Shown: positions 2,366 to 46,252 of the stretch, one piece after another
Position numbering within the stretch: the first letter of the stretch is position 1
Layout: each line of letters opens with the position of its first letter
Assembly (NCBI GenBank): GCA_044433365.1
Contig: JAWXTR010000001.1
Span: 44,860 to 108,859, forward strand
Direction of reading: 5' to 3'
Source of the DNA: Rikenellaceae bacterium
Lineage (GTDB): Bacteria; Bacteroidota; Bacteroidia; Bacteroidales; Rikenellaceae
DNA: 64,000 nucleotides
The notes under the pieces: generated by a model
Seen by the model: the letters and a program-made list of their open reading frames with translations, nothing else
Databases searched by the model: none
What the model was told of the DNA's origin: nothing
Program-made: the position numbers and the translations under genes

Positions 2366-2530
2366 AAGTAGTGTAAAACAATTATTGCCATATTCTTAAT
2401 AGCACTCTTGGAGCGATATTTTTCACTATTAAATCTCAATATAGAACCACTATATTTTCGATTCAATAGCAAAAAATCTCATCTCCAATAGCACTTTTAA
2501 AAATACACCAATAATTATTTTACCCTACTT
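2366..2530 (-). mobile_element. TA-flanked 163-bp long-hairpin MITE (family TA-MITE165), full copy
   Basis: AGTAGTGTAAAACAATTATTGCC...GGTAAAATAATTATTGG-type termini, about 80-bp imperfect inverted arms, TA on both flanks. Strand given is the one on which arm mismatches become G-U. Confidence 0.85.
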
Positions 2531-2552
2531 AGACGATTTTTTAATCTAAAAA

Positions 2553-3272
2553 ATGAAAATAAACATAAGAATTTTTATACTTTCGTTTTGGATGCTGTTA
2601 TCGACATCAGTTGCATTTTCGCAATACTCTATGGGAAGTGTAGGGCTGCTAAATGCTCCTACAGCGCAGCTTAGTGGTGACGGAGTTGCATCAGCGGGGG
2701 TGAATTTTTTACCCGAGGTGATGTCGCCTGATGAGTGGGACTATAACAGTGCAAACTACTTCTTGAATATCACATTTTTACCATTTGTTGAGGTGGGACT
2801 AAAATACACGCTTATACATTTCGACAATGGGGTGTGGAACCAAGACCGTTCAGTATCGTTGAGGTTGAGAGCCTTAAAAGAGCGAAAATATCTACCTGCA
2901 ATTGCTATTGGTACCAACGATTTGCTCACTTTTAGAAATTTAAATACGCTAGATAAAGTAGATGGAAATAGATATTTTTCGGCTATCTATGCTGTGGCTA
3001 CAAAACATATCGATATAGCTGTGGGGCAATTTGGTGTGACCTTTGGGGGCTATGTGCCAGTAGATTCAAACCAATTTTTAAAAGGTCTGTTTGGTGGAGT
3101 ATCGTTTGAACCAAAATTCTACTCAGATTTAAAATTTTTGGTCGAGTACAACAACCGTGATATCAGCGCAGGAGCTGTAATAAAACTATTTAATAACTTT
3201 TCGTTGTACGCATTTGCATACGATATGAAAGCACTAGCAGGAGGGATACGTTATGAGATTGATTTATACTAA
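2553..3272 (+). CDS. secreted/outer-membrane hypothetical protein (possibly YjbH/DUF940-like)
   Basis: 239 aa. Signal peptide MKINIRIFILSFWMLLSTSVAFSQ, beta-rich with alternating aromatics. Family assignment is from memory only. Confidence 0.55.
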   Translation: MKINIRIFILSFWMLLSTSVAFSQYSMGSVGLLNAPTAQLSGDGVASAGVNFLPEVMSPDEWDYNSANYFLNITFLPFVEVGLKYTLIHFDNGVWNQDRSVSLRLRALKERKYLPAIAIGTNDLLTFRNLNTLDKVDGNRYFSAIYAVATKHIDIAVGQFGVTFGGYVPVDSNQFLKGLFGGVSFEPKFYSDLKFLVEYNNRDISAGAVIKLFNNFSLYAFAYDMKALAGGIRYEIDLY

Positions 3273-4512
3273 AAATGTTATAATATTGTTATCTCTCTTA
3301 CTTTTTGTGCCCCTTAGCGTAGTGGCACAAAACAGGGGTAGAGGTGTAGAAGTGTCGCATCAAAATATTTTAAGTGATAATAGCGATAGTGTAGATAGCG
3401 GAGTGGTAAAGCTATTGGTAGAGATGGGAATGGAGGACGTAAAGGCTATAACTAAAGGCGACAACACTTACATCTGCTATGAAGATAACATCTACAGAGG
3501 AAACTATCGAGGTATTGCTCAGACGGTAAAATCGCTACGAGAGATAGTTCCTACACAAACCATAAATTTACTGCTTCTTAGCGATGGTATAGCTCAAATA
3601 TCGATAGTTGTACCCGAAAATTTCGAGCAGTTAGAGGTGAGCTATTCTACAACCAAAATTGCTGAGCAGTTAAAAGGCAAAGAGAGCCATAATAGGCGAT
3701 TTGGTAAGACAGATATTGTGCTCTATCCCGAACTTTTCTTGGAAAATTCGTGGCTAGATAGATTGTATGGCTATGCTGTAAATTTATCGCCAGCTGTTGA
3801 GGTGAGCCTCTGGAAAGGTGCCGAATTTACAGGACAAGTAGTCCTACCTTTAAAGACCAATATGGTAGATGAGCACCAATATATCCGACCTGGGTTTATA
3901 ACCTTACGACAGTCGTTTCGACTCCCTAAAAACATTATGGGTGATATTACGGTGGGTAATTTCGACACTAATAGAGCAGGGTTAAATCTAAATTTATGCT
4001 ATTATAGCCTTAATAATCGACTTTCATTTGGAGTAAATGGAGCATTGACAGGTTCGTCTACTTTTAATAAAGGTGAGTGGACGCTAAGCCAATGGCGACG
4101 ATTTTCTGGCTCTTTTTGGGGTGGTTACTACATTCCACGATACAATATGGAGACTAAAATTAGCGTAGGGCGCATGATTTATGGTGATAGTGGAGTTAGA
4201 GTCGATATGGCACGCCATTTTGGAGAGGTTGCAGTAGGGCTTTATGCTCACTATTATGGAGGTGACCCAAATGGTGGATTCTCTTTTACTGTTCCTATGC
4301 CGAGCAAACGTCGATGGGCACGTAAACCAATAAGAGTGACAATTCCAGAGGAATTTTCGAGGGTGTATAGGGCGCAAAGTAGTAGAGATTTATTACTAGG
4401 ATATAGCTTTACAACCCGACCTGATGAGAGTTGGAATCTAAACTTTTATAATCCTATTTATATTCGTAATAGGGTTGTTGGTTTGTTAAGGGAACTTCTA
4501 AAAATCGAATAA
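3253..4512 (+). CDS. secreted/outer-membrane hypothetical protein (possibly YjbH-like), operonic with 2553..3272
   Basis: 419 aa. Signal peptide and beta-rich C-terminal half. 20-nt overlap with the upstream ORF. The last codons run into a GGGAAC element. Confidence 0.55.
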   Translation: MRLIYTKNVIILLSLLLFVPLSVVAQNRGRGVEVSHQNILSDNSDSVDSGVVKLLVEMGMEDVKAITKGDNTYICYEDNIYRGNYRGIAQTVKSLREIVPTQTINLLLLSDGIAQISIVVPENFEQLEVSYSTTKIAEQLKGKESHNRRFGKTDIVLYPELFLENSWLDRLYGYAVNLSPAVEVSLWKGAEFTGQVVLPLKTNMVDEHQYIRPGFITLRQSFRLPKNIMGDITVGNFDTNRAGLNLNLCYYSLNNRLSFGVNGALTGSSTFNKGEWTLSQWRRFSGSFWGGYYIPRYNMETKISVGRMIYGDSGVRVDMARHFGEVAVGLYAHYYGGDPNGGFSFTVPMPSKRRWARKPIRVTIPEEFSRVYRAQSSRDLLLGYSFTTRPDESWNLNFYNPIYIRNRVVGLLRELLKIE

Positions 4513-4545
4513 AACCAATTATTAGAACTCCCCTTAAGGGGAGTT
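4490..4545 (+). mobile_element. GGGAAC-type mini palindromic element (short form) plus adjacent AACTCCCC/GGGGAGTT hairpin
   Basis: GGGAACTTCTAAAAATCGAATAAAACCAATTATTAGAACTCCCC flanked by TTAA on both sides. AACTCCCC-TTAA-GGGGAGTT hairpin at 4526-4545. Confidence 0.8.
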
Positions 4546-4575
4546 GTAAATTTTTTAACATTTATTCGCACAAAT

Positions 4576-4905
4576 AAGTAGGGTAAAATAATTATTGGTG
4601 TATTTTTAAAAGTGCTATTGGAGATGAGATTTTTTGCTATTGAATCGAAAATATAAGTAGTGTAAAATAATTATTGGTGTGTTTTTAATAGTGCTATTGG
4701 AAATGAGATTTTTTGCTATTGAATTGAAAATATAGTGGTTCTACATTGAAATTTAATAGTGAAAAATATCGCTCCAAAAGTGCTGTTAAAAATATGGCAA
4801 TAATTGTTTTACACTACTTAGTGGTTCTATATTGAGATTTAATAGTGAAAAATATCGCTCCAAGAGTGCTATTAAGAATATGGCAATAATTGTTTTACAC
4901 TACTT
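4576..4905 (+). mobile_element. nested TA-MITE165: full copy inserted in the apex TA of another copy
   Basis: Order is arm X, TA, complete element, TA, loop GTGGTTC, arm Y. An uninterrupted apex reads AAAATA-TA-GTGGTTC in other copies. Confidence 0.8.
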
Positions 4906-4963
4906 AATAGGGAAGCAGAGCAGAATTCCCAAATAATATTCAAGGAATTTTAAAAATAGGTGC

Positions 4964-5007
4964 GGTAACTTCTAAAATCTCTTAAAATCCAGAATTTAGA
5001 ACTCCCC
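4964..5007. repeat. GGGAAC-family variant (..CTTCTAAAATCTCTTAAAATCCAGAATTTAGAACTCCCC)
   Basis: Shares the TTAGAACTCCCC terminus and the AAATCTCT.AAAATCCAGAA core seen at 20318, 26737, 32233, 47922 and 58460. Confidence 0.6.
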
Positions 5008-6289: not shown

Positions 6290-6333
6290 GGGAACTTCTA
6301 AAAATCGAATAAAACCAATTATTAGAACTCCCC
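6290..6333 (+). mobile_element. GGGAAC-type mini palindromic element (short form)
   Basis: Near-identical 44-bp copy starting immediately after the stop codon of 5047..6288. Confidence 0.8.
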
Positions 6334-6385
6334 TATAATTATTCGGTAAATTATTTAGGGATTTGCTCTGTTTCTACTTTGTAAT

Positions 6386-7773: not shown

Positions 7774-7836
7774 TATAATTCATAATGCATAATTCATAAT
7801 GCATAATTCATAATTTATAATTTATAATTTATAATT
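7774..7836 (-). repeat. heptanucleotide satellite array (reads CATAATK/TATAATT on plus)
   Basis: About 9 tandem 7-nt units filling the response-regulator/kinase spacer. Confidence 0.95.
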
Positions 7837-11134: not shown

Positions 11135-11172
11135 CATTACAATTATGCATTATGAATTATGCATTATGAATT
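11135..11172 (+). repeat. heptanucleotide satellite array (AATTATG orientation)
   Basis: CATTACAATTATGCATTATGAATTATGCATTATGAATT in the TolC/MacA spacer. Confidence 0.95.
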
Positions 11173-12529: not shown

Positions 12530-12561
12530 AATTATGCATTATGAATTATGCATTATGAATT
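12530..12561 (+). repeat. heptanucleotide satellite array (AATTATG orientation)
   Basis: AATTATGCATTATGAATTATGCATTATGAATT. 3' arm of the stem with 12438-12469. Confidence 0.95.
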
Positions 12562-12574
12562 AAAATTTATTGCT

Positions 12575-13328: not shown

Positions 13329-13360
13329 AATGCATAATTCATAATGCATAATTCATAATT
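13329..13360 (-). repeat. heptanucleotide satellite array, left arm bracketing the four-helix-bundle gene
   Basis: AATGCATAATTCATAATGCATAATTCATAATT. Its reverse complement matches 13732-13763 at 31 of 32 positions. Confidence 0.95.
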
Positions 13361-13781: not shown

Positions 13782-16196
13782 ATGAAAAATATATTACGAA
13801 ATAGAGATGGTGAGTTGCTAAAGGTGATACTACTAGGTGTTGCACTAGCAATGTCGCTTGTGATGTTTTCAAAGGTCTATTTTGAGAATAGCTATGAGGA
13901 TTTTGTGCCCAAGGCTGAGCGAATATATCGGGTGCATCCTCGATTTACTAGAGCAGGGCTTAGGATGATTCCCCAGTGGGCAACAACACCCGGTGGAATT
14001 GCACCAACAATAATAAAATTCTCTCCCCTTTTTGAGAGTGCTACACGATATAAGGTATATCGCAACGATGCAGCCTTTTATAAGGTGAGTGATAGTGATA
14101 GCGATGATGCACGTTCGGTAGTTTGTAGTGAGATGATACTTGCTGATAGCAATTTCCTTAGTTTTTTTCCACGTAATGTTATTGGTGCTACTATGGAAGA
14201 TATTGCCTCTACTTCACACGATGTGCTTTTATCTCGCTCTTTGGCTGAGAGTTTAAGCCATGACGGTGATGCAGAGTCGATTATTGGTAGTATGATACGA
14301 AGTAATGCTATCGTAATAGACGAAGATTTTACGGTAAAAGGAATTTTTGACGATTTTCCAAAAAATTCCTCACTTTGTGATATTGAGGTAATAGGTTCGG
14401 TGGAGCTTAACAATCTCTTTTATGATGAAGAGGATCATAACCGATTAATGGGTAACGAAGTATACCACAGTTATGTAAGATTGCAACCAAATGTAGAGGT
14501 TGCAGAGCTAGACAAGGCAATAGAGAATGCAATAGAGACAGATATTGTCAAAACATATAAAGATTTTATACCTGATGATATGTCGATTGGTTACTATTTA
14601 GAGGGTATTAAAACTATACATACCTCTGAGCAGTCGGTACGCTCAACGATTACACTACTGCTGATTTTAGGAATTTCAGTACTTGCAATTGCAATGTTAA
14701 ACTACGTTCTTTTTGCAGTAACTGCACTTGTTAAGAGGGCTAAAAATATTGCGACTCGCCGCTGTTATGGTGCGCCTACATGGGTGATATACAAAATGCT
14801 TATCAGTGATGCACTCTCTACGCTTTTGCTCTCACTAGCGTTGGCTGTATTTCTATTATTTGCATTAAAACCAAATATAGAAGCTATTACGGGTGTGCGT
14901 TATGTCGATTTATTTACTTTTGATATAGTTTGGATTGTGGTTGTGGTGTCGCTAATGGTGGTTATGGTGTGTGGTGTCGTTCCTGCTGCTATCTACTCAA
15001 AAATTCCTCTTTCGGCAGCGTTCCAACGCTTTAAAGAGCGAAATACAAAGTGGAAATATGCGCTTTTGGCTGTTCAATTCTCGGGTGCAATGTTGTTTAT
15101 CGCTCTACTTTCGATTATGACGCTACAATATCGCTATCTGTTATCCGTAGATATTGGCTATAAATATGATAATCTGCTATACGTGCAGTTTGAACGCTTT
15201 AATAGCGATGGTTACAAGGAGGTAAAAGATAATGTAATAAAAGTTGCAGGAGTTGAAAAAGTGGCACGTTGTTCGGATTTACCCTACACATTTCTTAGTT
15301 CTAATAGCACTTACGATAGTCAGGATGGTTTTTTATTCTCTTCTAACGAGATGAGTGCAGCCGATGAAGATTTACCATCAATCTTTGGACTCGAAATTGT
15401 TGAGGGGCGTGATTTTGATGCAGAGCATCCTACGGGGCAAGAGGCTTTGGTTAGTAAATCGTTTGTAGAGCAGATGTCTAAATATAAAGATTGGAGCGAT
15501 GGAGCAGTGGGTAAGTCGTTTCAAATGTCGTCACATAATCATAATGATGAGTATTCAACGGTTTGCGGAGTGTACGAAGATTTTTTAGTTGGAAATGCTG
15601 TTACTTTAGATGATATGCCATCTGTTATTTTCTATAGTGAGACTCAAAGCCATAACTATAATGTTAAGATGAAATATCTTGTCATAAAAGTTCGAGAAGA
15701 TACTCAAGAGATTAGAACAGCTATTCAAAATGCTATTAAAGAGATTGTGCCATCGCAAAATACTGAGATTCGTAACTACTCAGCAGAGTTTGAGCAGTCG
15801 TATTCTGATAGTAAAAACTTTAGAAACATGGTGCTTTACGCAGGTTTGATAGTGTTGATAATCACTTTAATCGGTTTGGTAGGCTATACACGTGATGAAA
15901 TATCACGTCGCAGGTCGGAAATTGCTATTCGTAAGATTCATGGAGCTACAACTTCCGAAATTATTCAGATTTTTATGCGTGATGTGGTTTGGCTTTTGCT
16001 TTTTGGACTTTTAGCAGGTGGTGCAGCTTCGCTATATGCTGCTAACTCTCTACTTGAGATGTTCGCCTATAAAATTACGCTTAGCCCATGGATATTCCTA
16101 TTGAGTGCAGTAGTAGTAACAGCAGTAATAGCCGCAGTGGTAATATCTACAACTCATAGAGCTGCTGATGCTAACCCTGTGGATAACCTTAATTAA
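13782..16196 (+). CDS. ABC transporter permease, duplicated FtsX/MacB-type
   Basis: 804 aa. Two modules, each a large extracytoplasmic domain plus a 4-TM FtsX-like bundle. Follows the ATPase in the same operon. Confidence 0.8.
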   Translation: MKNILRNRDGELLKVILLGVALAMSLVMFSKVYFENSYEDFVPKAERIYRVHPRFTRAGLRMIPQWATTPGGIAPTIIKFSPLFESATRYKVYRNDAAFYKVSDSDSDDARSVVCSEMILADSNFLSFFPRNVIGATMEDIASTSHDVLLSRSLAESLSHDGDAESIIGSMIRSNAIVIDEDFTVKGIFDDFPKNSSLCDIEVIGSVELNNLFYDEEDHNRLMGNEVYHSYVRLQPNVEVAELDKAIENAIETDIVKTYKDFIPDDMSIGYYLEGIKTIHTSEQSVRSTITLLLILGISVLAIAMLNYVLFAVTALVKRAKNIATRRCYGAPTWVIYKMLISDALSTLLLSLALAVFLLFALKPNIEAITGVRYVDLFTFDIVWIVVVVSLMVVMVCGVVPAAIYSKIPLSAAFQRFKERNTKWKYALLAVQFSGAMLFIALLSIMTLQYRYLLSVDIGYKYDNLLYVQFERFNSDGYKEVKDNVIKVAGVEKVARCSDLPYTFLSSNSTYDSQDGFLFSSNEMSAADEDLPSIFGLEIVEGRDFDAEHPTGQEALVSKSFVEQMSKYKDWSDGAVGKSFQMSSHNHNDEYSTVCGVYEDFLVGNAVTLDDMPSVIFYSETQSHNYNVKMKYLVIKVREDTQEIRTAIQNAIKEIVPSQNTEIRNYSAEFEQSYSDSKNFRNMVLYAGLIVLIITLIGLVGYTRDEISRRRSEIAIRKIHGATTSEIIQIFMRDVVWLLLFGLLAGGAASLYAANSLLEMFAYKITLSPWIFLLSAVVVTAVIAAVVISTTHRAADANPVDNLN

Positions 16197-16255
16197 TTCA
16201 TAATTTGTAATGCATAATTCATAATTGAAAATTCTTAAATTATGAATTATAAATT
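16195..16255. repeat. opposed heptamer arrays forming a hairpin just after the permease stop
   Basis: AATTCATAATTTGTAATGCATAATTCATAATT, 10-nt loop, AAATTATGAATTATAAATT. Confidence 0.9.
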
Positions 16256-16317
16256 AATTTACATGAGAACAATAGCAAACTTTTTTGTTTGATAGTAGTT
16301 TTGAGAATGACTCTAAG

Positions 16318-16386
16318 AAAAAAGGTTTGAAAAACCTTCGCACTGCTCATAAAAAGCGGAAGAAGGATTTTCAAACCTTTATTGGT
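16318..16386. mobile_element. short derivative of the AATAAAGGTTTGAAA-terminated element (family M190)
   Basis: AAAGGTTTGAAAAACC...GGAAGAAGGATTTTCAAACCTTTATTGG shares both termini and the GCGGAAGAAGG segment with 57111-57300. Confidence 0.6.
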
Positions 16387-16400
16387 GTTTAAAATATAAA

Positions 16401-16444
16401 GGGAACTTCTAAAAATCGAATAAAACTAATTATTAGAACTCCCC
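16401..16444 (+). mobile_element. GGGAAC-type mini palindromic element (short form)
   Basis: 44-bp copy flanked by TAAA on both sides. Confidence 0.8.
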
Positions 16445-16464
16445 TAAAACTTTTCTTTAGTATT

Positions 16465-16628
16465 AAGTAGTGTAAAACAATTATTGCCATATTCTTAATA
16501 GCACTCTTGGAGCGATATTTTTCACTATTAAATCTCAATATAGAACCACTATATTGAGATTCAATAGCAAAAAATCTCATCTCCAATAGCACTATTAAAA
16601 ATACACCAATAATTATTTTACCCTACTT
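16465..16628 (-). mobile_element. TA-MITE165, full copy abutting the frdB stop codon
   Basis: TA on both flanks. The right TA plus the terminal element base form the frdB TAA stop on the minus strand. Confidence 0.85.
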
Positions 16629-17370
16629 AGTCTTTTAATTTTGCACAAAGGAACTCACGGTTTAGGCGAGCGATATGAGAGATTGAGATACCTTTTGGAC
16701 ACTCAGCCTCACAAGCTTGTGTATTAGTACAACCACCAAAACCTAAATCATCCATTTTAGCAACCATCGCTTTAGCACGACGAGAAGCCTCAACTTTACC
16801 TTGTGGTAGAAGAGCTAGAGAAGATACACGAGCAGCTACGAAAAGCATAGCTGAACCGTTTTTACAAGTAGCAACGCAAGCACCACAACCGATACAAGCG
16901 GCAGCATCCATACTATCCTCAGCATCTGGCTTAGGAATTGGAATTGCGTTTGCATCAGGAACACCACCTGTATTTACTGAGATAAAACCACCTGCATGAA
17001 GAATTTGCTCGTAAGCAGTTCTATCAACAGCAAGGTCTTTAAGTACAGGGAATGCTTTTGAACGCCAAGGCTCAATTGTAATCTCTTTTTGACCTTTAAA
17101 CTTACGCATGTGAAGCTGACAAGTAGTGATATCATCATCTGGACCGTGTGCACGACCATCAATAAATAGAGAACACATACCGCAGATACCCTCACGACAG
17201 TCGTGGTCGAATACTACTGGCTCTTGACCTGCATGGATAAGGTCGTTGTTTAAAATATCTAACATCTCTAGGAATGAGCTATCCTCAGAAATATTTTTCA
17301 CATCATAGGTTTCAAATTTACCTGCTGATTGTGCGTTGGCTTGACGCCATATCTTTAATTTTAAATCCAT
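16627..17370 (-). CDS. frdB: fumarate reductase/succinate dehydrogenase iron-sulfur subunit
   Basis: 2Fe-2[10 protein letters not shown], 4Fe-4[12 protein letters not shown], third cluster C..CEAECP. Confidence 0.92.
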
Positions 17371-21690: not shown

Positions 21691-21715
21691 GTTGGTATTA
21701 ATCATTACTGCTGTT

Positions 21716-21957
21716 AAGTAGTGTAAAACAATTATTGCCATATTTTTAACAGCACTAAGTAGTGTAAAACAATTATTGCCATATTCTTAATAGCACTCTT
21801 GGAGCGATATTTTTTACTATTAAATCTCAATATAGAACCACTATATTTTCGATTCAATAGCAAAAAATCTCATCTCCAATAGCACTATTAAAAATACACC
21901 AATAATTATTTTACCCTACTTATTAAAAACAGACCAATAATTATTTCACACTACTTA
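21716..21957 (-). mobile_element. nested TA-MITE165: full copy inside the central TA of a ~74-bp miniature derivative
   Basis: Left terminus (39 bp), TA, complete element, TA, right terminus (33 bp), TA. Confidence 0.8.
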
Positions 21958-24577: not shown

Positions 24578-24790
24578 ATTATTTTTTCAATTGATTTTTA
24601 AATAAACAACAGTGAAACATAGTTTTTAAAGCAAAAAAATAATAGGATTAGGCGCATAGAGCGCACTCGTTATAACACTTTCTACACTTAATTTCAACAT
24701 CATTTACGATGTATAGTACTGGGCTGAATGCGGTTTGTCTATAAGTATAAATATACATTTGTCTCATTATCAAGCTATAAGTCTTAAAAT

Positions 24791-24955
24791 AAGTAGTTTG
24801 AGATAATTATTGGTGTGTTTTTGATAGTGCTATTGGAGATGAGATTTTTTGCTATTTAATTGAAAATATCGTGGTTCTACATTGAGATTTAATAGTGAAA
24901 AACATCGCTCCAAGAGTGCTATTAAAAATATGGCAATAATTGTTTTTCACTACTT
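24791..24955 (+). mobile_element. TA-MITE165, diverged full copy, itself inside a ~340-bp segment bounded by GATTAGGYGCATAGAGC inverted repeats (24645-24982)
   Basis: TA flanks. Outer inverted repeat is GGATTAGGCGCATAGAGCGCAC / GTGCTCTATGCACCTAATTC. Confidence 0.75.
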
Positions 24956-25280
24956 ACAATGTGCTCTATGCACCTAATTCTAAAAAAAAAATTGCATAAT
25001 ATATTGTAGTACAAGAACTTGTAGGTATAATAATAAGAATAGTTATTATTTTGCTTGCAAAATAGATATTACGCATATTATATTTGCAGAATCATAAAAT
25101 AACCAACTTGCAAGTGATTTTTATTTGGTGATGTCAAAATTTAATATTAACTTTAAAACGTAAAATTGTGTTATACGACAAAGATTTATATGAAAATTAT
25201 CCAAGTTATTTAATGGATAAGAAAAAAGAAATAAAAAGGAGAATGAAATAGGATATGGTGCTCCGTCACCAATTCCTACT

Positions 25281-32152: not shown

Positions 32153-32169
32153 TAAATCTAATAGTTACT

Positions 32170-32276: not shown

Positions 32277-32306
32277 TTTATATATTTACCCCCAATTTTT
32301 AAGAGA

Positions 32307-33854
32307 ATGACCCACAACCAAACCCTTACTGTCGCAATGTCGCTGCTACTAGCAGCCCCAGCAGTTGCAAACGCAAAAAGTAGCAAACCCAATTTGCTAT
32401 TTATCGTAACCGATGAACACAACTTCCGTACACTTGGATGTTATCGAGACCTTCTTCCTAAAGACCAAGCCGAAATTTGGGGCGATGGCAACATTGTAGA
32501 GACTCCAAATATCGATAAAATTGCCGAAAGAGGCGTTTTATTTGATAGAATGTATGCCTCAGCCTCAGTAAGTACTGCTGCACGTGCAGCAATGTTTACA
32601 GGATTTTATGGACACCAATTAGGTATGCCAAACAACTCTAATAAACCTGGCGATGGCAAATATCTTCATGAAGATGTGCGCACCATTGCCCAAATTTTAT
32701 CAGAAGCAGGCTACAAAACTGGCTATGCAGGAAAGCTCCATTTAGCTGAAGAGCGTGGTGAAAAACATGATGAATGGTGGGAGCCTTACCCCGTAGGATG
32801 TGAGGGCTATAACTATGGATTCCAAGATAACAGATATATGTTTAATGGAGGTCATGGTAAATTTATCGGTATGGGCGACGATGGCAAACCATATTTTGCA
32901 TCAGCTCGTTCTGTTCCAAACGGACGTGATAAGTATGGATTTGCACGCTTTAAAGATGAAAAATCGAGCAATGTAAGCTCTACAAACGATTTTCTTTGTA
33001 CACGTGCATTAGAATTTATTGACGAAAATAGCGATAATCCATTCTATTATGTAGTGAGTATTCCAGATCCTCACACTCCCGATACAGCAGTTGGCGACTA
33101 CACCAACCTTTATACCGATATGAGAGTAGAAAAACCTCGCACTTACGATGCTCCACGCCCTGAGGGTACTCCAAAATGGCAACGACCAGATGGTAAGGCG
33201 GTATCTTTAGCTAAAAGTCTACCTCAATATTTTGGTATGGTAAAAAATATCGATGATAATGTTGGTCGAATCCTTGATAAATTGGAGCAGGAGGGTATTT
33301 TAGAGAATACAATTATAGTTTTCACCTCAGATCATGGCGATTTAATGGGTGAACACGCACGTATGAATAAGGGTACAATCCACGATGGAGCAACAAAGGT
33401 ACCTTTTGTAATTGCGCATGGTAAAGATTGTAAAAAACCTCTTGTCCCACGTGGCAAAGTGGTAAAAGAGGCTTCAAATACAACAGATTGGATGCCTACA
33501 TTCTTAAGCCTACTTGGAGTAAAATCACCAGAAGTTCCTGGACGTGATGTTACGCCACTAATGAGTGGAAAAGCTCCAAAAGGGTGGAACGATGTGACAT
33601 TCTCACAGCTAGGATTTACCGCAGCTATCGATTCTCGTTATAAGCTTATGGTTACACCATTTGGTGATGAGCCTTGGTTTTTCGATGCAGTAGAAGATCC
33701 AGACGAAATCGTAAATCTATATAACGACCCAAAATATGATGAAATAATCGTTAAACTAACTAAAGATTTGCAAAAATATAATGTTGAGTGCAATAATAGT
33801 AGTGAAAAAATTGCATCAATATTAGAGAAAATCTTAACTGATAAAGGTTGTTAG
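32307..33854 (+). CDS. sulfatase (Ser-type, S-x-A-x-R maturation motif)
   Basis: 515 aa. Signal peptide, NLLFIVTDEHN, SVSTAARAAMFTG, GKLH, TSDHGD. Confidence 0.88.
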   Translation: MTHNQTLTVAMSLLLAAPAVANAKSSKPNLLFIVTDEHNFRTLGCYRDLLPKDQAEIWGDGNIVETPNIDKIAERGVLFDRMYASASVSTAARAAMFTGFYGHQLGMPNNSNKPGDGKYLHEDVRTIAQILSEAGYKTGYAGKLHLAEERGEKHDEWWEPYPVGCEGYNYGFQDNRYMFNGGHGKFIGMGDDGKPYFASARSVPNGRDKYGFARFKDEKSSNVSSTNDFLCTRALEFIDENSDNPFYYVVSIPDPHTPDTAVGDYTNLYTDMRVEKPRTYDAPRPEGTPKWQRPDGKAVSLAKSLPQYFGMVKNIDDNVGRILDKLEQEGILENTIIVFTSDHGDLMGEHARMNKGTIHDGATKVPFVIAHGKDCKKPLVPRGKVVKEASNTTDWMPTFLSLLGVKSPEVPGRDVTPLMSGKAPKGWNDVTFSQLGFTAAIDSRYKLMVTPFGDEPWFFDAVEDPDEIVNLYNDPKYDEIIVKLTKDLQKYNVECNNSSEKIASILEKILTDKGC

Positions 33855-33925
33855 TACAATGTTTGAGGGTGACCCCAAAGTATCTATTTTAAGAGGGTGA
33901 CTCAAAAGTAAAGAAATTTACTTAA

Positions 33926-34088
33926 GGGAACTTCTAAAAATTGGATTTCATCTGCTTTTCCATTTTGAAGTCTCATCTTTGAATTTTACAAAATGCTTAC
34001 GTAGGCACCACTACGCTCACATTTTGTAAAATCCAAATCTAAAACTTCAAAAAGAAAAATCAAATAAAACCAATTATTAGAACTCCCC
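33926..34088 (+). mobile_element. GGGAAC-type element, long form
   Basis: TTAA on both flanks. The insert carries TTTTGAAG / CTTCAAAA where the other long copies have TTTTGAGG / CCTCAAAA. Confidence 0.8.
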
Positions 34089-34100
34089 TTAAAATTAAAC

Positions 34101-34157
34101 AATCCAGACCATTATCCCCACTCACAACGCTTGTGAACAGGGGTGATGGTCTGGATT
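34101..34157. terminator. long hairpin in convergent intergenic region
   Basis: AATCCAGACCATTATCCCC ... GGGGTGATGGTCTGGATT with an inner CACAA-CGC-TTGTG hairpin, followed by TTT. Confidence 0.35.
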
Positions 34158-34220
34158 TTTGATTGTGGGTCACCCTCTTGTTTCTATATTTTAAGGATTT
34201 TTGAGTCATCCTCCTTTCAT

Positions 34221-35363
34221 CTACCTGCCAACACCAAAACGATAGTAGCAGTGCTGTTTGTAACGCTCTCCAGCTTTGATAATAGGCGATGGCCACTCAG
34301 GATTGTTTACAGCATTAGGATAGTGTTGAGTTTCAAGACAAATAGACTTGTGTTTCTCGTATGCTATCCCCTTTTTACCGGTATAGCTTTTATCGTAGCC
34401 ATTACAGGTAAAAAACTGAAAACTAGGTTGTGAGGTGTATACGCTCATCTCTATTCCGCTCTCTGGAGAGTATAGAACAATATCTACATCGCTCTCTGAT
34501 TTGTTGTTTAAAATCATATTCACACCAAATCCACCACTAATTTGTATCTCTTCTACATCCATATTTTGGCTTATCCTTTCACCAATATTTGCCATAGTTC
34601 TAAAATCCATCGGTGTACCATCTACAGGAGCGATATCACCACGAGGAATCTGGTCGGGCGACTTGGGAGTGAAGTAGTCGCTATCGATAAAGATATCGTT
34701 TGAAAGAATGGTTTGAGTAGGGTCGCCACTCAGTGCAAAATATGAGTGGTTTGTAAAGTTTATAACAGTTGTGGCATCACTCGAAGCGTCGTAATCAATC
34801 TTTAAGGTGTTGAGATAGTCTACAGTATAGGTAACAGTAGCATCTACATTACCTGGGAATCCACTCTCGCCATCTGGACTAAAATAGGTCAATACCAGAG
34901 AGCTATCTGTCACATTTTTTACCTCAAAAATTTGCCCTTGCCACCCCTTAGGTCCGCCATGAAGCGAGTGATTACCATCGTTTTTATCCAAAATATACTC
35001 TTTCCCCTCTAACGTAAAACGACCATCTCTAATTCTATTTGCATTACGCCCAACCATTGCTCCATAAGGAATATTGTTTGCCATATAGTCAGTGATATTG
35101 TCAAAACCAAGCACAACATCACGTTTTACACCATCTCTATCATCAACCATAATAGATACAATACGTGCACCATAATTTGTGATACACGCCTCCATGCCAT
35201 TGCTGTTTTTTAGGGTATATAGAGCCACTTTTTTACCGTTTGCTACAGTATCGAATCTACTAGGATTTAGACCTGAAAGAGTTAGCTCTGTTTTTGGTGT
35301 AGTGCAAGCGGCAAAAATCGAAAATGCTGCTAGCGATGGAATTAAAAATTTTGTTAAATTCAT
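34221..35363 (-). CDS. galM: aldose 1-epimerase (galactose mutarotase), secreted/lipoprotein
   Basis: 380 aa. Lipobox ..IFAAC, GARIVS, NHSLHGG, TNHSYF, LETQHYPNA. Confidence 0.88.
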   Translation of the reverse strand: MNLTKFLIPSLAAFSIFAACTTPKTELTLSGLNPSRFDTVANGKKVALYTLKNSNGMEACITNYGARIVSIMVDDRDGVKRDVVLGFDNITDYMANNIPYGAMVGRNANRIRDGRFTLEGKEYILDKNDGNHSLHGGPKGWQGQIFEVKNVTDSSLVLTYFSPDGESGFPGNVDATVTYTVDYLNTLKIDYDASSDATTVINFTNHSYFALSGDPTQTILSNDIFIDSDYFTPKSPDQIPRGDIAPVDGTPMDFRTMANIGERISQNMDVEEIQISGGFGVNMILNNKSESDVDIVLYSPESGIEMSVYTSQPSFQFFTCNGYDKSYTGKKGIAYEKHKSICLETQHYPNAVNNPEWPSPIIKAGERYKQHCYYRFGVGR

Positions 35364-35386
35364 TTTCTTTTCTTTTCTTAGATTTT

Positions 35387-35551
35387 AAGTAGGGTAAAAT
35401 AATTATTGGTGTATTTTTAAAAGTGCTATTGGAGATGAGATTTTTTGTTATTGAATCGAAAATATAGTGGTTCTATATTGAGATTTAATAGTGAAAAATA
35501 TCGCTCCAAGAGTGCTATTAAGAATATGGCAATAATTGTTTTACACTACTT
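35387..35551 (+). mobile_element. TA-MITE165, full copy
   Basis: TA flanks. Lies between the galM start and the sulfatase stop. Confidence 0.85.
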
Positions 35552-35564
35552 AGAGGTTTGCCTA

Positions 35565-37070
35565 TTATTTTTTATCGTAAATATGAGTATTTCCTTTTTC
35601 AAGCAGAGGCATAAGTTTGTCTACTATTTCACTATTTTCAGCAGCGATATTCTCTCTTTCGTAATCCATTCCGTTATACTTAAATAGTTCAATATTTGGC
35701 TTAGCATCTCTATAATAGTGAGTTAATCTATATTGTGGAGTTCGTAGAGTGTAGCCACTTTTAAAATATGAGTAGGCTGCATCTTCCCAATTTTTATCTT
35801 TCGGTTTGTTGAGCAAAGTGGCAAAACTTTTACCGTCGAGTGCTGCACCATCAGCAACATCCACATCGCAAAGCTCCATAAGAGTAGGATATATATCAAC
35901 AGAGCTTACAATACGACTATTTACCACACCTTTTTTGCCTTTTGGTGAGCGTACTATAAGAGTACTTCGAAGTGAAGGTTCGAGGATTGTATGTTTCCCC
36001 CAAACATTCATATCACCCAAGTTCCAACCATGATCGCCCCAAACCACCACAATAGTATTTTCAGCAAGCCCTTTTTCCTCCAATTTTGAGAGCAGTTTAC
36101 CTATCTGGGCATCGGTATAGCTTACGCAAGCGTAGTAGGCATGGCGCAAACGGCGAGCATAATCATCCGATACAGCTTTGCTGAGCGATGCTGCTTCATC
36201 GCCTGTTTTGTAGGCATTAAACTCACCACTACCATGTAGGCTAGCGTTGCTTATATTTTGGGGAATATCCTTAAATGGCGAAACCTCTATTTCACTCTCA
36301 TCATACATATCCCAATATTTTTTTGGGGAGTTGAAAGGTAGGTGAGGCTTAAAAAAACCTACTGCAAGACAAAAAGGCTCACTATTATCGCTAAGTTCGT
36401 CCAATTTCTGGAGTGCTAACTCAGCCGATAGACCATCAGGAAGCCCCGTATCTGAGCAGTCGGCACACTCATAAGGTTTAACCTGATTTTTCATGCTTTG
36501 TCTGTTTTCGCCATCACTGTAGCCAAAAAATGCGTTCCAACCTGTTTCCCATTTACCACTATTAAATAGCATTTCATCCCAGCTATATGGAAGTTCTAAT
36601 ATATCACTAACAGGGTCGTTATATCCATATACTCTACCATCTGCACTATGGCTTATTTTGCCAATGCCTACAGTGTAGTAGCCATTACGACGAAGGTGGT
36701 GAAACATAGTTTCAGGCACTTCTTCCTCTTTTTTAGGTGTAATTTTATGCTCAGCAGCCCCATTCGAAATATCTATTCTATCCGTAGGTAGATGTCCTGT
36801 TAAAAGGCTTTTACGAGAGGCACCGCTTGTTGGTACTTGCACGTAGTGGTTGGTAAAAAGGGTGCCATCTTGAGCTAAACGGTCGAGATTTGGGCTTTTT
36901 ACCATAGAACCATAACAGCCTAGTTCAGTGCGCAGGTCGTCTACGCAGATAAATAGAATATTTGGTTTTTTAGCCTGCTTTGTGCTGCTATTTTCGCTAT
37001 TTTCTGCTGCTGCAAATAGCGATGAGGCTATAAATAAGGTGGTCGATAGTGTAAATTTTGTGTAATTCAT
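35565..37070 (-). CDS. sulfatase (Ser-type, S-x-A-x-R)
   Basis: 501 aa. Signal peptide, NILFICVDDLR, PTSGASRKSLLTG, GKISH, WGDHGW. Confidence 0.88.
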   Translation of the reverse strand: MNYTKFTLSTTLFIASSLFAAAENSENSSTKQAKKPNILFICVDDLRTELGCYGSMVKSPNLDRLAQDGTLFTNHYVQVPTSGASRKSLLTGHLPTDRIDISNGAAEHKITPKKEEEVPETMFHHLRRNGYYTVGIGKISHSADGRVYGYNDPVSDILELPYSWDEMLFNSGKWETGWNAFFGYSDGENRQSMKNQVKPYECADCSDTGLPDGLSAELALQKLDELSDNSEPFCLAVGFFKPHLPFNSPKKYWDMYDESEIEVSPFKDIPQNISNASLHGSGEFNAYKTGDEAASLSKAVSDDYARRLRHAYYACVSYTDAQIGKLLSKLEEKGLAENTIVVVWGDHGWNLGDMNVWGKHTILEPSLRSTLIVRSPKGKKGVVNSRIVSSVDIYPTLMELCDVDVADGAALDGKSFATLLNKPKDKNWEDAAYSYFKSGYTLRTPQYRLTHYYRDAKPNIELFKYNGMDYERENIAAENSEIVDKLMPLLEKGNTHIYDKK

Positions 37071-40760: not shown

Positions 40761-40821
40761 ACAATTCATAATTTATAATTTATAATTTATAATTCATAAT
40801 TTATAATTCATAATTTATAAT
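40761..40821 (-). repeat. heptanucleotide satellite array overlapping the 3' end of the GSCFA gene
   Basis: About 9 units. Encodes the terminal ..NYKL* of 40808..41758. Confidence 0.95.
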
Positions 40822-41758
40822 TAAGAACTATCCCTATCTCTTTTTCCAATTGCTGAGCTTTTTGGAAGGTTGTAGACAGAAACTTCTGATGTGCAGCACT
40901 TTGGGGGTTTTGAGGGCGGTGAGCTAAAGCCTTTACTACCGACTCCACCTCTTTCATATATCGCTGACTATCAACATCTATAACTTCAGTTGAAAATCTC
41001 TCCCAAACATAATCTACCCCTATTTTTGATGGGTGTACCATATCGCTATCATAAAATCTATAATCACGAAGTTCGTCGTTAAAAATCTCATAAGAGGGAT
41101 AGTAATCAACATTTTCAAACTTTTTACATAAGTTATCAACAGCCACTAAAAGATGAGCCTTACTAACACTGTTTACCGCAAAACCATCCTTTATATATCT
41201 AACGGGGCTAACTGTAAAAATTATATGCTTATCTTTAAAATATTCCTGCTTAAAAAGTGAAGCAAATAGCTCGTAAGTCTCATCGCTATCAATCAATTTT
41301 CTCTCAAAATCGGCTGCTGGAAATTTATGACAATTTGCCACTGCCTTTCCGCTCTCTTTTTGGTAGTAGCAGAGCGACGTGCCAAGTGTAATTATTATAA
41401 AATCCGACTCTCTAAGCTGTTTTTCACCTCTAATTATTGCACTATTTATCATCTCGACTGCCTCCGCTGCTCTGGAAGATGTAAGTAGTGTGTTGGCTAT
41501 AAACGAACCGTATAGTTCACGGTGAAAAAATAGGTCGTCGGTGGTAATTAATCTTTTCTCTTTTAAAATCGTTAGCGTATCTACCACCGACTGAGGATTG
41601 TAGAGCGTGCCAAGTGGATTGTAAAGGGTGTTAAACCTCCGAACAATAAGTTTTTCGCCAATATTTGCCGAAAAACATGAACCAATCATAAAAATAGTGC
41701 TTTTATAGTCTATTTTATTTTTAAAATCTACCTTTTCAACTTTTGTTTGTAGCTGCAT
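40808..41758 (-). CDS. GSCFA domain protein
   Basis: 316 aa. MIGSCFSANIGEKL (GSCFA motif) near the N-terminus. Confidence 0.75.
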   Translation of the reverse strand: MQLQTKVEKVDFKNKIDYKSTIFMIGSCFSANIGEKLIVRRFNTLYNPLGTLYNPQSVVDTLTILKEKRLITTDDLFFHRELYGSFIANTLLTSSRAAEAVEMINSAIIRGEKQLRESDFIIITLGTSLCYYQKESGKAVANCHKFPAADFERKLIDSDETYELFASLFKQEYFKDKHIIFTVSPVRYIKDGFAVNSVSKAHLLVAVDNLCKKFENVDYYPSYEIFNDELRDYRFYDSDMVHPSKIGVDYVWERFSTEVIDVDSQRYMKEVESVVKALAHRPQNPQSAAHQKFLSTTFQKAQQLEKEIGIVLNYKL

Positions 41759-43285: not shown

Positions 43286-45598
43286 TTACCAACCTATACC
43301 ATTTGCATCCTCAGCCTCAGCATTTAAATACCCCTCAGAACCTCCTTTTAGGATAATATTTTTAAATGTATATGAAACTTCGTCTGTCGATGATTTTGTT
43401 GCTCTATCAATAGTTAAAGTATTTCCGTAAATCATATCTTTATTATCTACGCCTGTTGTAAGGGTGATCTTGCTCTCTTGACTTACTATATTGCTTAGAA
43501 AAAACAGGTCATCGCCTAAATATTCTATAACACTACCATCGTTAGATGCAATTTCTAATGAAGTTAGTGCATCACAACCCTCAAAGGCTAAATTTTCGAT
43601 TGAAGTCGCAGATGGAAATGTTGCGGTTTCTAGTGAATAACAACCAACAAAGGCATCTTCTTCTATAAAAGTTACTGCTGGGAATGTTGCTGTCTCTAGT
43701 GAATAGCAACCTGCAAATGCATTATTCCCGATAAATTGAACCAATGGAAAGGAAATAGAAGATAAACTTTTACAGTTATTAAAAGCACTGTATTCAATAT
43801 ATTCTACATTAGGAGCTGTAATTGTAATTAATTTTTCGCAATTATCAAAAGCTCTACTATCAATAATTTTAGCTAACGGAACAGAAATGGTATTTAAATT
43901 TGTGCAATTATAAAATGATGCATGACTTATTGTATCTACCTTTGGTAGATATATATTTGTCAAATTATAACAGTCACAAAAAGGACCACATTGTTCATCA
44001 CACCCTAAAGTTGTTGCTTCAGGAAGAGATACGTTAACTAGGTTCGTGCACATGACAAATGCGCCTGCACGAATATTAGTTGCTTTAGGAAATGAAATAG
44101 TTGTTAAGTTTGAACAAGTATAAAAAGAGTAAAGACCAATTTTGTTAACTAACGGAAAAGAAACGTCTACAAGACTATTACATCCAATAAATGCACCACC
44201 ACCAATAGTTTCTACATTTGGAAATGAAATAGACGATAAATCACTGCAATTTGAAAATGATTTTACACCAATAGTTACTACATTAGGAAAATCGACATTT
44301 TTTAAACCTGTAATTTCTTGTTTATCTGGAGTAAAATAGCTGCAATTTATAAAAGCCATGTCAGCAATATTTTCAGCATTAGGAAATGATATATTCGTCA
44401 ACCTATTACAATTTTCAAATGCACTCTCACCAATACCTATAGCTAATGGAGCAGAAAATCCAATTAGATTTTGACAACAAATTTCATCGTTAGAAAAAGC
44501 ATTATTAGGAACACTTTCCAAATTAGGAAAAATCAAAGAAATATCCCTATCAGCATTATTAATAGCACTCTGAATATTAGCAAAATCCTTAGTACTACCC
44601 TCAACATCATCAATAGTCCAAACATCACCAGATGGAACAAAACTACCGTCAAAATCAGAAAGTGAAAGAGTTTGATTGCCATCTTCAATTGTAAAATCTT
44701 GAGTTAAATCTAATGCACCGCTATTGCTAAAATAGAAAGTATTGCGTGTAAAATTTATACCGTTTTCAAACTCTTTTATATACTTAGTTTTATTACCATC
44801 GCCATCTTTTGTTGTAATGTAGAGTGTAAATTTTTCACCGCTTAAATCTACAGGAGCTATAGCCATATTTAGCATAGCTGTGGTATATGCTTGGTTGCTG
44901 ATTGATGCGCTGATATTAGTTGATAGTGTTGAATTAGAATTATCGATAGCAATAGTGTTTAGGTCGATAGTTGCTGAGCTGTAGAATATTTCGGTATCAC
45001 TTTCAAATCCCAGTTCAATTAGAGTTTCATCGGTAGGAATATTTTCTAGCTCTAGTTGAAAAAACGACATTGCTTGTTTGAATTGCAAATCTGGAATATT
45101 ATAACCACCATCAGATGAAGCTGTAGCATCACTTGCCAAAGCTATCATAAGACCGTTAGAGTAGTCGCTATCGTCGGAAGCATTTAATATTTGAGTTGTT
45201 AAAGATACCTCAATAGTGGAATTAGAAGAATCTAGTGTGTAGCCAGTGGTTGTGTATGGGTATATAGCATAAATATCTTTTTCACCACTCCATGTGATAA
45301 TTTCACCCGAAAATTCGGAGCTTTCAGAAGCTGTATCTGTTGAAAATTTTTGATTATTGTTTAGCGTAGATGGAACAATTAGGCTAAAAGCATCATCCTC
45401 TTCCCATCTAAATTTGTAGGTAGAATTGTCGCTATTTGGTTCATACGAAACTTTGGTTGTAGTCTCGTTACTACCATTAATTGTTACAAAAATGGTTTTT
45501 TCCTCTTCATTTGGCGTAGGGGTGGTTGTGTTGTTACTCTTTTCACAACCTACAAACAGCGGTAGTGTAAGAAGTAGTGGGTAGATAAGTTTTTTCAT
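43286..45598 (-). CDS. surface lipoprotein with BspA-type leucine-rich repeats and fimbrillin-like N-terminal region
   Basis: Start at MKKLIYPLLLTLPLFVGC (lipobox). About 14 repeats of the ~23-aa pattern F.NC..L..I.FP..V..IG..AF..C. The upstream 64 codons of the track ORF run through a repeat element. Confidence 0.8.
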   Translation of the reverse strand: MKKLIYPLLLTLPLFVGCEKSNNTTTPTPNEEEKTIFVTINGSNETTTKVSYEPNSDNSTYKFRWEEDDAFSLIVPSTLNNNQKFSTDTASESSEFSGEIITWSGEKDIYAIYPYTTTGYTLDSSNSTIEVSLTTQILNASDDSDYSNGLMIALASDATASSDGGYNIPDLQFKQAMSFFQLELENIPTDETLIELGFESDTEIFYSSATIDLNTIAIDNSNSTLSTNISASISNQAYTTAMLNMAIAPVDLSGEKFTLYITTKDGDGNKTKYIKEFENGINFTRNTFYFSNSGALDLTQDFTIEDGNQTLSLSDFDGSFVPSGDVWTIDDVEGSTKDFANIQSAINNADRDISLIFPNLESVPNNAFSNDEICCQNLIGFSAPLAIGIGESAFENCNRLTNISFPNAENIADMAFINCSYFTPDKQEITGLKNVDFPNVVTIGVKSFSNCSDLSSISFPNVETIGGGAFIGCNSLVDVSFPLVNKIGLYSFYTCSNLTTISFPKATNIRAGAFVMCTNLVNVSLPEATTLGCDEQCGPFCDCYNLTNIYLPKVDTISHASFYNCTNLNTISVPLAKIIDSRAFDNCEKLITITAPNVEYIEYSAFNNCKSLSSISFPLVQFIGNNAFAGCYSLETATFPAVTFIEEDAFVGCYSLETATFPSATSIENLAFEGCDALTSLEIASNDGSVIEYLGDDLFFLSNIVSQESKITLTTGVDNKDMIYGNTLTIDRATKSSTDEVSYTFKNIILKGGSEGYLNAEAEDANGIGW

Positions 45599-45615
45599 AA
45601 TTAAAAGTTTATTTA

Positions 45616-45659
45616 GGGGAGTTCTAATAATTGGTTTTATTCGATTTTTAGAAGTTCCC
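45616..45659 (-). mobile_element. GGGAAC-type mini palindromic element (short form, inverted)
   Basis: TTTA on both flanks. 18 nt upstream of the LRR lipoprotein ATG. Confidence 0.8.
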
Positions 45660-45753
45660 TTTAGTTGATAAATATATTTATAATTTAGTTTTTTGTAGTT
45701 GATTACACCATAAAGCACAAGATGCGTGGACAAAACTATATCAGAACATAGGT

Positions 45754-45842
45754 ACGACCAAGCACCCTCCACCCAACAAGTAAAGCCCACGCAAACGCAG
45801 GCGTTATACTTATTGTTTTCTGGGTGGATTAAAATTGGTCGT
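45754..45842. other. GC-enriched nested-helix segment (possible structured RNA or degenerate MITE)
   Basis: ACGACCAA/TTGGTCGT (8 bp) enclosing CCACCCA/TGGGTGG (7 bp) and inner partial pairings. Stands out from AT-rich surroundings. Confidence 0.2.
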
Positions 45843-45874
45843 TTTATGTTCCCAAAACAATAGCAAACGCTATA

Positions 45875-46035
45875 GGGAACTTCTAAAAATTGGATTTTAA
45901 CGCTTTTTTATTTTGAGGCTTCACCTTTGAATTTTACAAAATGCACCGTAGGCACCACTACGCTCACATTTTGTAAAATCCAAATCTAAAACCTCAAAAT
46001 AAAAAATCGAATAAAACCAATTATTAGAACTCCCC
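45875..46035 (+). mobile_element. GGGAAC-type element, long form
   Basis: TATA on both flanks. Near-identical to 23856-24015. Confidence 0.8.
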
Positions 46036-46086
46036 TATAATATATCTAAATTGGCATCTCTTGCCAAAATTTTTACAAAGTTAACT

Positions 46087-46252
46087 TAAGTAGTGTAAAA
46101 CAATTATTGCCATATTCTTAATAGCACTCTTGGAGCGATATTTTTCACTATTAAATCTCAATATAGAACCACTATATTTTCGATTCAATAGCAAAAAATC
46201 TCATCTCCAATAGCACTATTAAAAATACACCAATAATTATTTTACCCTACTT
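46087..46252 (-). mobile_element. TA-MITE165, full copy, 3' of the MATE gene
   Basis: TA flanks. This is the copy used for the arm-by-arm pairing analysis. Confidence 0.85.

Follow-up and report, generated by a model that had tools for sequence, protein, structure and literature searches.

A TA-flanked hairpin MITE of uncultured Rikenellaceae that folds asymmetrically on its two strands and appears sorted in orientation by operon context

The DNA analyzed here (the window) is a 64,000-nucleotide stretch of a Rikenellaceae bacterium (assembly GCA_044433365.1, contig JAWXTR010000001.1, positions 44,860 to 108,859 of the forward strand). It is of Bacteroidales type with ~37% GC and carries, among other genes, frdCAB, aroA, galM, several sulfatase genes, and a gene for a MATE transporter; the closest frdB proteins, at 89% identity, come from Rikenellaceae metagenome-assembled genomes (MAGs). 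Dispersed among these genes are copies of a MITE (miniature inverted-repeat transposable element) with a body of 163 bp, AGTAG...CTACT, that is without coding capacity, has 22-bp terminal inverted repeats (TIRs; AAGTAGKGTAAAAYAATTATTG, inverted at each copy), and ends next to TA (TA-AGTAGKGTAAAAYAATTATTG, inverted at the two ends). The two arms of the element pair with each other in one long hairpin, and we refer to the strand on which the differences between the arms can pair as G-U as the G-U strand. When the 22-nt terminus pattern AAGTAGKGTAAAAYAATTATTG is searched with up to three mismatches, it matches the window 18 times, against 0.01 matches expected from shuffled sequence. The matches delimit nine copies of the element (seven full-length, two of those nested inside older copies), with TA on both sides of every one. 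A preliminary description of this sequence had reported seven copies with AGTAG...CTACT termini and TA flanks; the termini, the flanks, and all seven loci are borne out, but the count is too low, as the loci at 4576 and 21716 each hold a nested extra copy. The copies are as follows, with coordinates that include both flanking TAs and with the strand referring to the G-U strand.

2365..2531, G-U strand (-), full-length copy between two + genes, 44 and 22 bp away; antisense to both
4575..4906, G-U strand (+), older full-length copy split at an internal TA; left part to 4655, right part from 4819
4654..4820, (+), nested full-length copy in the TA beside the apical loop of the older 4575..4906 copy
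16464..16629, (-), full-length copy with a 162-bp body in the TA of the frdB stop codon; G-U strand is frdB sense
21715..21957, (-), 76-bp derivative with an internal deletion, interrupted by the nested copy 21756..21922
21756..21922, (-), full-length copy, nested, in the spacer that separates the divergent aroA and deoC-like genes
24790..24956, (+), full-length copy, the most diverged in the window, with 13 G-U, 1 A-C, and 4 pyrimidine-pyrimidine mismatches
35386..35552, (+), full-length copy with minus-strand neighbors galM and a sulfatase gene, 23 and 13 bp off; antisense to both
46087..46253, (-), full-length copy located 59 bp past the stop of the MATE gene; G-U strand is MATE sense

To place these copies in a wider setting, a census was made by scanning species-representative genomes for the terminus pattern and adding the window (L-numbers below denote fetched loci). 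Among the matches listed there are at least 88 loci, all in Rikenellaceae MAGs except for two contigs of one MAG titled "bacterium," and the listed matches and the window together contain at least 66 full-length copies, the commonest length being 165 bp when one base per TA is counted. The AAGTAG...CTACTT match is preceded by T in 65 of the 66 listed copies and followed by A in 65 of 66, and TA is present on both sides in 60 of the 62 listed copies with enough flank. Those 62 copies occupy 62 different sites that have nothing in common beyond TA, and all 62 lie either in non-coding sequence or in the TA of a stop codon; sites of this kind make up 17.6% of TA dinucleotides. The same pattern gave no matches in viral contigs, none in a plasmid collection, and a single, unrelated match in the JGI metagenomes. 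When the window was checked for orthology against the at least 88 listed loci, the MITE itself was the sole match, and an exact look-up of the window frdB protein, meant to find strain-level relatives, returned none on record.

Nested copies and an empty site identify the flanking TA as a target-site duplication made on insertion. Removing the nested copy 4654-4820 together with one TA leaves 168 bp that are 100% identical to the intact copy 2364-2531, and excising a nested copy in L012 with one TA likewise restores an intact element. Once rebuilt, the element that hosts the 21756 copy corresponds to 76-bp copies that stand uninterrupted in six loci (L047, L039, L052, L071, L063, and L087). 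Finally, in L028 the element interrupts the loop of another repeat (GAAAGTA[element]TAAAC), of which a paralogue in L049 is uninterrupted (GAAAGTGAAC). The TA duplication proposed from the flanks of the window copies is thus supported by three nested insertions and by one paralogous empty site. Deletion derivatives are also found at TA-flanked sites of their own (76 bp long at eight and 64 bp long at three of the listed sites); they too are mobile, which means that movement requires no more of each arm than its outer 30-37 bp.

The copies are young. Nucleotide identity of frdAB between the window and the nearest MAGs is 79-83%, whereas the median identity between MITE copies of different genomes is 93%, close to the 94.5% seen within the window, and no insertion site is common to two genomes among the 62 listed sites. 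Because MITE identity exceeds frdAB identity and sites are not shared, the activity of the element is younger than the species splits. The element is a non-autonomous DNA transposon of an uncultured Rikenellaceae clade whose sites differ between genomes, and the same comparison of sequences points to a recent horizontal spread of the MITE and its transposase between species.

The frdB copy illustrates how an insertion can adjoin a gene. The frdB stop codon, TAA at 16627-16629, consists of the duplicated TA and the first A of the element, and because both element ends begin with A, TAA is restored whichever way the element inserts. Two relatives, both without the element, have an frdB that ends at the same codon (...KD-stop), in keeping with the earlier proposal that this copy entered the TA of the stop codon; their spacers are too diverged to be aligned. 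Stop-codon insertion accounts for 8 of the 62 listed copies, compared with 5.5% expected if all non-disruptive TA sites are taken as equal (p = 0.02). That insertion into a stop-codon TA always restores TAA shows how the element can lie next to a gene harmlessly.

The fold of the element differs sharply between its strands. On the G-U strand, the consensus folds as RNA into a single hairpin of 73 pairs (50 A-U, 12 G-C, and 11 G-U, with no A-C) closed by a 5-nt loop inside GTGGTTC, i.e., the one long imperfect hairpin and the loop motif that had been described before. Its three internal mismatches are all purine-purine (G.A, G.G, and A.G). In total the arms differ at 14 positions, which the complement strand reads as C-A or pyrimidine-pyrimidine, and the G-U strand holds 32 G and 12 C. 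Unbroken helices run to 15-18 pairs on the G-U strand, compared with a maximum of 8 on the complement, and the computed RNA folding energies are -76.2 and -40.0 kcal/mol, respectively. As a transition between the arms gives G-U or C-A with equal prior probability, a G-U to A-C ratio of 11:0 in the consensus is significant (two-sided binomial p = 0.001). The preliminary description had counted, in the outer 41 positions of the copy at 46088-46252, eight differences between the arms of which six were transitions, all six of them G-U on the strand starting AAGTAGGGTAAAATAATTATTGGTG; this count is exact, and the bias is stronger than it implied, with 549 G-U cells against 20 A-C cells over 52 distinct copies. 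In the alignment of these 52 copies, 98.9% of cells pair on the G-U strand, and the asymmetry is kept in all 66 listed full-length copies.

Several controls bear on the origin of this asymmetry. In three other hairpin repeat copies of the window (25910-26125, 57105-57320, and 16300-16400), the two strands fold about equally well, so the asymmetry is not a genome-wide artefact of composition. Which way the G-U strand points shows no relation to local GC skew (21 versus 22), and this speaks against a mutational cause tied to replication as well as against single-strand transposition that is strand-specific. No Rfam family matches the element at the gathering threshold, and at a permissive threshold the only Rfam matches are generic long-hairpin ones to plant microRNA precursors, far under the cut-off. 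Compensatory double changes occur at 3 of 67 pairs (18 cells; none of 500 shuffles reaches that number) in copies that are very similar to each other; pair 72/97, the clearest case, is U-A in 20 copies, U-G in 13, and C-G in 15.

The orientation of the element relative to its neighbors is not random. Of the 39 listed sites flanked by co-directional genes, 15 have the G-U strand in sense and 24 have it in antisense, hence there is no recruitment in the sense direction. The balance depends on spacer length, a relation that is significant but unreplicated: where the residual spacer is at most 150 bp, 2 copies are sense and 14 antisense (binomial p = 0.004), and where it exceeds 150 bp, 13 are sense and 10 antisense (Fisher p = 0.008 for spacer class versus orientation). 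Mann-Whitney tests give p = 0.003 for the total spacer and 0.0009 for the larger flank, or 0.0014 and 0.0008 with a stricter cut-off for open reading frames (ORFs). Both short-spacer copies in the window, at 2366 and 35387, are antisense. The short derivatives, with their much weaker hairpins, are unsorted (four sense, three antisense), and in convergent spacers the G-U strand is sense to the nearest gene in three of the listed copies and antisense in three. The antisense excess in short spacers suggests that the strong hairpin is avoided in operons rather than recruited to them. The copies at frdB and the MATE gene do lie directly downstream of these genes with the G-U strand in sense, as previously proposed, but a 3' stem-loop on the G-U strand is not the general rule (15 versus 24); the sense orientation is tolerated at such transcription-unit ends, where the hairpin could act as a 3' stem-loop.

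What moves the element was pursued over ~0.67 Mb (the window and the listed loci). Profile scans of the window ORFs (NCBIfam and Pfam) detect no IS630-type transposase, as had been noted on first inspection. The assignment to IS630 made at that stage is tentative: it agrees with the TA-specific 2-bp duplication, but no matching autonomous partner turned up in the ~0.67 Mb; moreover, some IS5-group elements also give TA-containing duplications (IS5/IS427-type DDE groups make TA-type duplications of 2-4 bp), and a TA duplication is therefore not exclusive to IS630. Among the candidates considered and rejected, sequence beside unpaired termini proved to be decayed, truncated, or foldback mini copies instead of an autonomous element; ORFs between pairs of termini were housekeeping genes (pyrB-pyrI, nadA, and an lpxH-like gene) and not transposase genes; and a screen for TA-flanked 18-bp inverted repeats 900-1700 bp apart yielded one candidate, in L005, which is a lipoprotein gene. 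There are no long repeated segments among the listed loci. A 101-aa ORF at 24218-24523 (-) gives a borderline match to an IS1595 transposase zinc ribbon (24.6 bits against a cut-off of 25.4) and probably represents the remains of a transposase gene; as duplications in the IS1595 family are 8 bp long, this ORF is no candidate partner of a MITE that duplicates TA.

The same loci contain unusual forms of the termini. Foldback mini-elements of 40 bp (L003 5353-5397 and L056 4860-4903) consist of a terminus and its own reverse complement, flanked by TA (e.g., TAAGTAGGGTAAAATAATTATTGGTGTATTTTACCCTACTTA), and suggest template switching or hairpin copying at the ends as a possible origin of long-hairpin MITEs. 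L068 carries at 3334-3393 a 60-bp perfect palindrome of two termini placed head to head, AAGTTTGGCAATAATTGTTTTACACTA-CT-TAGTGTAAAACAATTATTGCCAAACTT, with unrelated flanks, which looks like a junction of abutted ends or like two truncated copies.

From the TA duplication, mobility, strand asymmetry, and distribution observed above, we infer a scheme that we regard as fairly probable: a MITE mobilized in trans, whose founder became asymmetric through a pairing constraint on one strand and whose strong hairpin is purged from operons. The element would be moved by a DDE transposase that is specific for TA, belongs most probably to the IS630/Tc1-mariner group, and is encoded elsewhere in the genome or has since been lost. 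In the lineage of source copies, pairing would have been constrained on one strand, most simply as RNA, in an AT-biased genome, such that mutation pressure from GC to AT could take G-C pairs through G-U to A-U while A-C products were lost. Placed in a polycistronic mRNA, the strong hairpin would, by analogy with Correia/NEMIS elements, likely be a substrate for RNase III or a roadblock causing pausing and polarity. Selection would then eliminate copies in the strong orientation from operons but spare those at transcription-unit ends, which may incidentally serve as 3' stem-loops. The dependence of orientation on spacer length indicates that the transcript matters, and the view that the master copy was shaped by structure at the RNA level, first put forward in the preliminary description, remains the best, though tentative, reading of the founder asymmetry.

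A number of observations weigh against this scheme. Substitutions after insertion have no significant direction (22 distinct events to G-U and 15 to A-C), from which it follows that the asymmetry is mainly a property of the founder and that copies then decay roughly neutrally. Covariation is thin, since the copies are young, and the compensatory changes preserve the DNA palindrome as well as the RNA helix. The single-stranded DNA fold is asymmetric too (-42 kcal/mol for the G-U strand and -25.5 kcal/mol for its complement with DNA parameters), and RNA is therefore not the sole candidate for the constrained molecule. No transposase with matching ends turned up in the window, in 609 kb of related loci, in plasmids, or in viral contigs. 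The relation between spacer and orientation was spotted in the data before it was formally tested, on 39 sites with crude ORF-based gene calls, and an orientation-specific promoter or terminator within the element would predict the same pattern; by eye, no convincing TAnnTTTG promoter motif is seen on either strand of the element.

A second hairpin repeat in the window, unrelated to the MITE, provides a comparison. This family (GGGGAGTTCTAATAATTGG..., GGGGAGTTCTAATAATTGGTTTTATT...AATTTTTAGAAGTTCCC) occurs in two forms.

23866-24015, 33939-34090, and 45886-46036: long form, ~155 nt
4488-4534, 6290-6334, 16401-16445, 28016-28060, and 45615-45660: 45-nt form

Its long copies are asymmetric as RNA as well, with folding energies of -62 to -72 on one strand versus -42 to -51 kcal/mol on the other and G-U to A-C ratios of 5:1, 8:0, and 4:0. 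The short copies have apparent 4-bp TWWA duplications (TAAA/TAAA, TTTA/TTTA, and TTAA/TTAA), and two copies abut or overlap the ends of ORFs, at 4512 and 6288. The family is absent from the 93 fetched loci.

The alternative that fares best, although we consider it improbable, views the asymmetry as a frozen accident, or as a mutational footprint, of the founder (e.g., from strand-specific cytosine deamination or one-sided C loss while the founder was located in a highly transcribed or single-stranded setting). The fold would then be meaningless, and the sorting of orientation in short spacers would stem from some other orientation-specific signal in the element, e.g., an outward promoter or a terminator. 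All 14 arm differences can indeed be described as loss of C on one strand (G 32 versus C 12), changes after insertion are not significantly directional, and the 76-bp and 64-bp derivatives transpose without the inner hairpin, i.e., the full hairpin is dispensable for mobility. Such a footprint would, however, require that ~14 of 26 C and none of 26 G were lost on the same strand, which is far beyond ordinary skew, and it does not account for the absence of any relation to local GC skew (21 versus 22), for a second hairpin family that is biased in the same way (8:0, 5:1, and 4:0) while three other repeat copies are unbiased, or for an orientation that varies with operon context.

Less likely still is that the one-strand fold is an evolved property of the transposons, two unrelated MITE families of this genome having diverged only along G-U paths while the folded strand served propagation or regulation. 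The folded molecule could then be a transcript of the element or a single-stranded intermediate; for example, the hairpin RNA would give rise to small RNAs acting on the transposase, or the folded strand would be required in transposition.

We find it about as doubtful, or slightly more so, that the hairpin is a 3' stabilizer or terminator recruited by the host and selected in sense downstream of genes. Consistent with such a role, at frdB and MATE the G-U strand is in sense and the copy lies at the stop or 59 bp past it, 5 of the 8 listed stop-codon copies are sense, sense copies outnumber antisense ones in long spacers (13 versus 10), and known MITEs can stabilize or destabilize upstream mRNA (PMC2229807). 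Yet there is no overall excess of sense copies (15 versus 24), convergent spacers are evenly divided (3 versus 3), no U-tract follows the hairpin, and no insertion is common to genomes, hence none is old enough to show conservation.

Mobility as single-stranded DNA by an HUH/Y1 transposase (IS200/IS605-like or RAYT-like), with TA as a target dinucleotide plus a matching end, is very unlikely. In its favor, strand-specific hairpins are the substrate of this class, the DNA fold is strand-asymmetric (-42 versus -25.5 kcal/mol), and the termini read A-GTAG, reminiscent of GTAG-tagged REPs, but the same 22-bp inverted repeat stands at both ends as in DDE elements, orientation has no relation to the replication-strand proxy (21 versus 22) while IS608-type elements are strongly biased, short derivatives that retain the outer arms alone are mobile, and the scanned window proteins include no Y1 gene.

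The remaining repeats of the window are of other kinds. A third repeat of ~215 bp, built around AAAGGTTTGAAAAACCTTCTTCC...GGAAGAAGGTTTTTCAAACCTTTATT, lies at 25910-26125 and 57105-57320, with a partial copy at 16336-16398, and has a symmetric fold. Tandem arrays of a heptamer (AATTCAT, AATGCAT, or AATTTAT; complement AATTATG), with 4-9 units, occupy ~18 intergenic sites; most intergenic spacers contain them, many of the arrays lie immediately upstream of a start codon, and they recall the heptamer repeats of cyanobacteria. Examples of these arrays are the following.

7775-7836, 11141-11172, 12530-12562, 13329-13360, and 21644-21690: heptamer arrays
29731-29792, 40763-40822, 55045-55102, 59685-59780, and 63093-63126: further heptamer arrays

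In the convergent spacer downstream of frdB (16190-16629), the MITE is joined by a 45-nt hairpin of the second family, a AAAGGTTTGAAAA hairpin, and a heptamer array, i.e., repeats pile up where two transcription units end. Between two of the MITE insertions, the overlapping ORFs 2553-3272 and 3253-4512 (+) both match YjbH (PF06082), at profile positions 2-126 and 480-594, and may be a split or frameshifted gene. The ORF at 43286-45790 (-) encodes an 834-aa BspA-type leucine-rich-repeat protein and has the 45-nt hairpin 45615-45660 inside its 5' end (GTG start), so that the real start is probably further downstream. On the scale of the whole window, the cumulative GC skew climbs to ~32 kb and then drops, and genes switch from mostly + to mostly - at ~30000-36000, as would fit either a terminus-like region, in which replication forks converge, or a plain gene-strand effect.

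Among known systems, the element is of the ERIC, RUP, and Correia kind, and it is distinguished by its clean strand asymmetry together with its apparent sorting of orientation by operon context. All three families combine TIRs and TA duplications with stable RNA stem-loops (PMC2229807, PMC10969869). ERIC (or IRU), a 127-bp imperfect palindrome of the Enterobacteriaceae, resembles the element in being intergenic, in its TA termini, and in its long stem-loop transcript (PMC2229807, PMC3184786), and its effect on flanking mRNA depends on orientation (PMC2229807). It belongs to another phylum and has no sequence similarity to the Rikenellaceae element, which is longer, AT-rich, and built as a far more regular helix (73 pairs, 11 of them G-U) with a larger energy gap between strands. 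One E. coli ERIC copy that we folded is itself asymmetric (-44.5 versus -34.1 kcal/mol, with ratios of 4:1 for G-U to A-C and 14:1 for purine-purine to pyrimidine-pyrimidine), so that a classical bacterial MITE with TA flanks offers a precedent. Copies of ERIC are old and retained at orthologous positions, whereas those of the element are young and each at a unique site.

RUP of Streptococcus pneumoniae (107 bp) is likewise a MITE that is small and non-coding, has TIRs, and duplicates TA; it has been ascribed to IS630-Spn1, whose IS630-family transposase would act in trans (PMC2229807). It differs from the element in that a candidate autonomous insertion sequence with related ends is known, and the two are unrelated in sequence. 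To our knowledge, no strand-asymmetric fold has been reported for RUP. The Correia elements of Neisseria (NEMIS) share with the element a TA duplication, TIRs, and abundant intergenic copies (PMC2229807), and they are co-transcribed with genes into RNA whose hairpins are cut by RNase III (PMC2229807, PMC10969869). Pairing in Correia elements is limited to the 26-bp TIRs, and they carry an IHF site and promoters, whereas the Rikenellaceae element is one hairpin over 163 bp in which no protein-binding motif was identified. Nezha of the cyanobacteria falls in the same size class (130-170 bp), has a stable predicted hairpin, and was recently mobile as judged from filled and empty sites; its transposase may have its source in a different genome (PMC3184786). 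It is set apart by TIRs that it has in common with a known insertion sequence, ISNpu3. The Stowaway MITEs of eukaryotes are mobilized by Tc1/mariner transposases and are TA-specific. We know of no description of a one-directional G-U pattern or of an operon orientation filter for either Nezha or Stowaway.

Neither of two reviews (PMC10969869 and PMC3184786) mentions a MITE or IS630-type element in Bacteroidales, and the present element adds a well-delimited, recently active MITE family to this order. Turning one and the same insertion around changes its RNA folding energy almost twofold, and the copies that survive appear to be sorted accordingly. If the one-strand fold were an evolved property of the transposon, the element would be "RNA-silent" in one orientation and hence able to colonize operons. 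If the operon orientation filter holds in a full census, these insertions would provide a natural experiment on the tolerance of bacterial polycistronic mRNA for secondary structure, and the element would be a potential matched pair of strong and weak hairpin cassettes for Bacteroides genetics.

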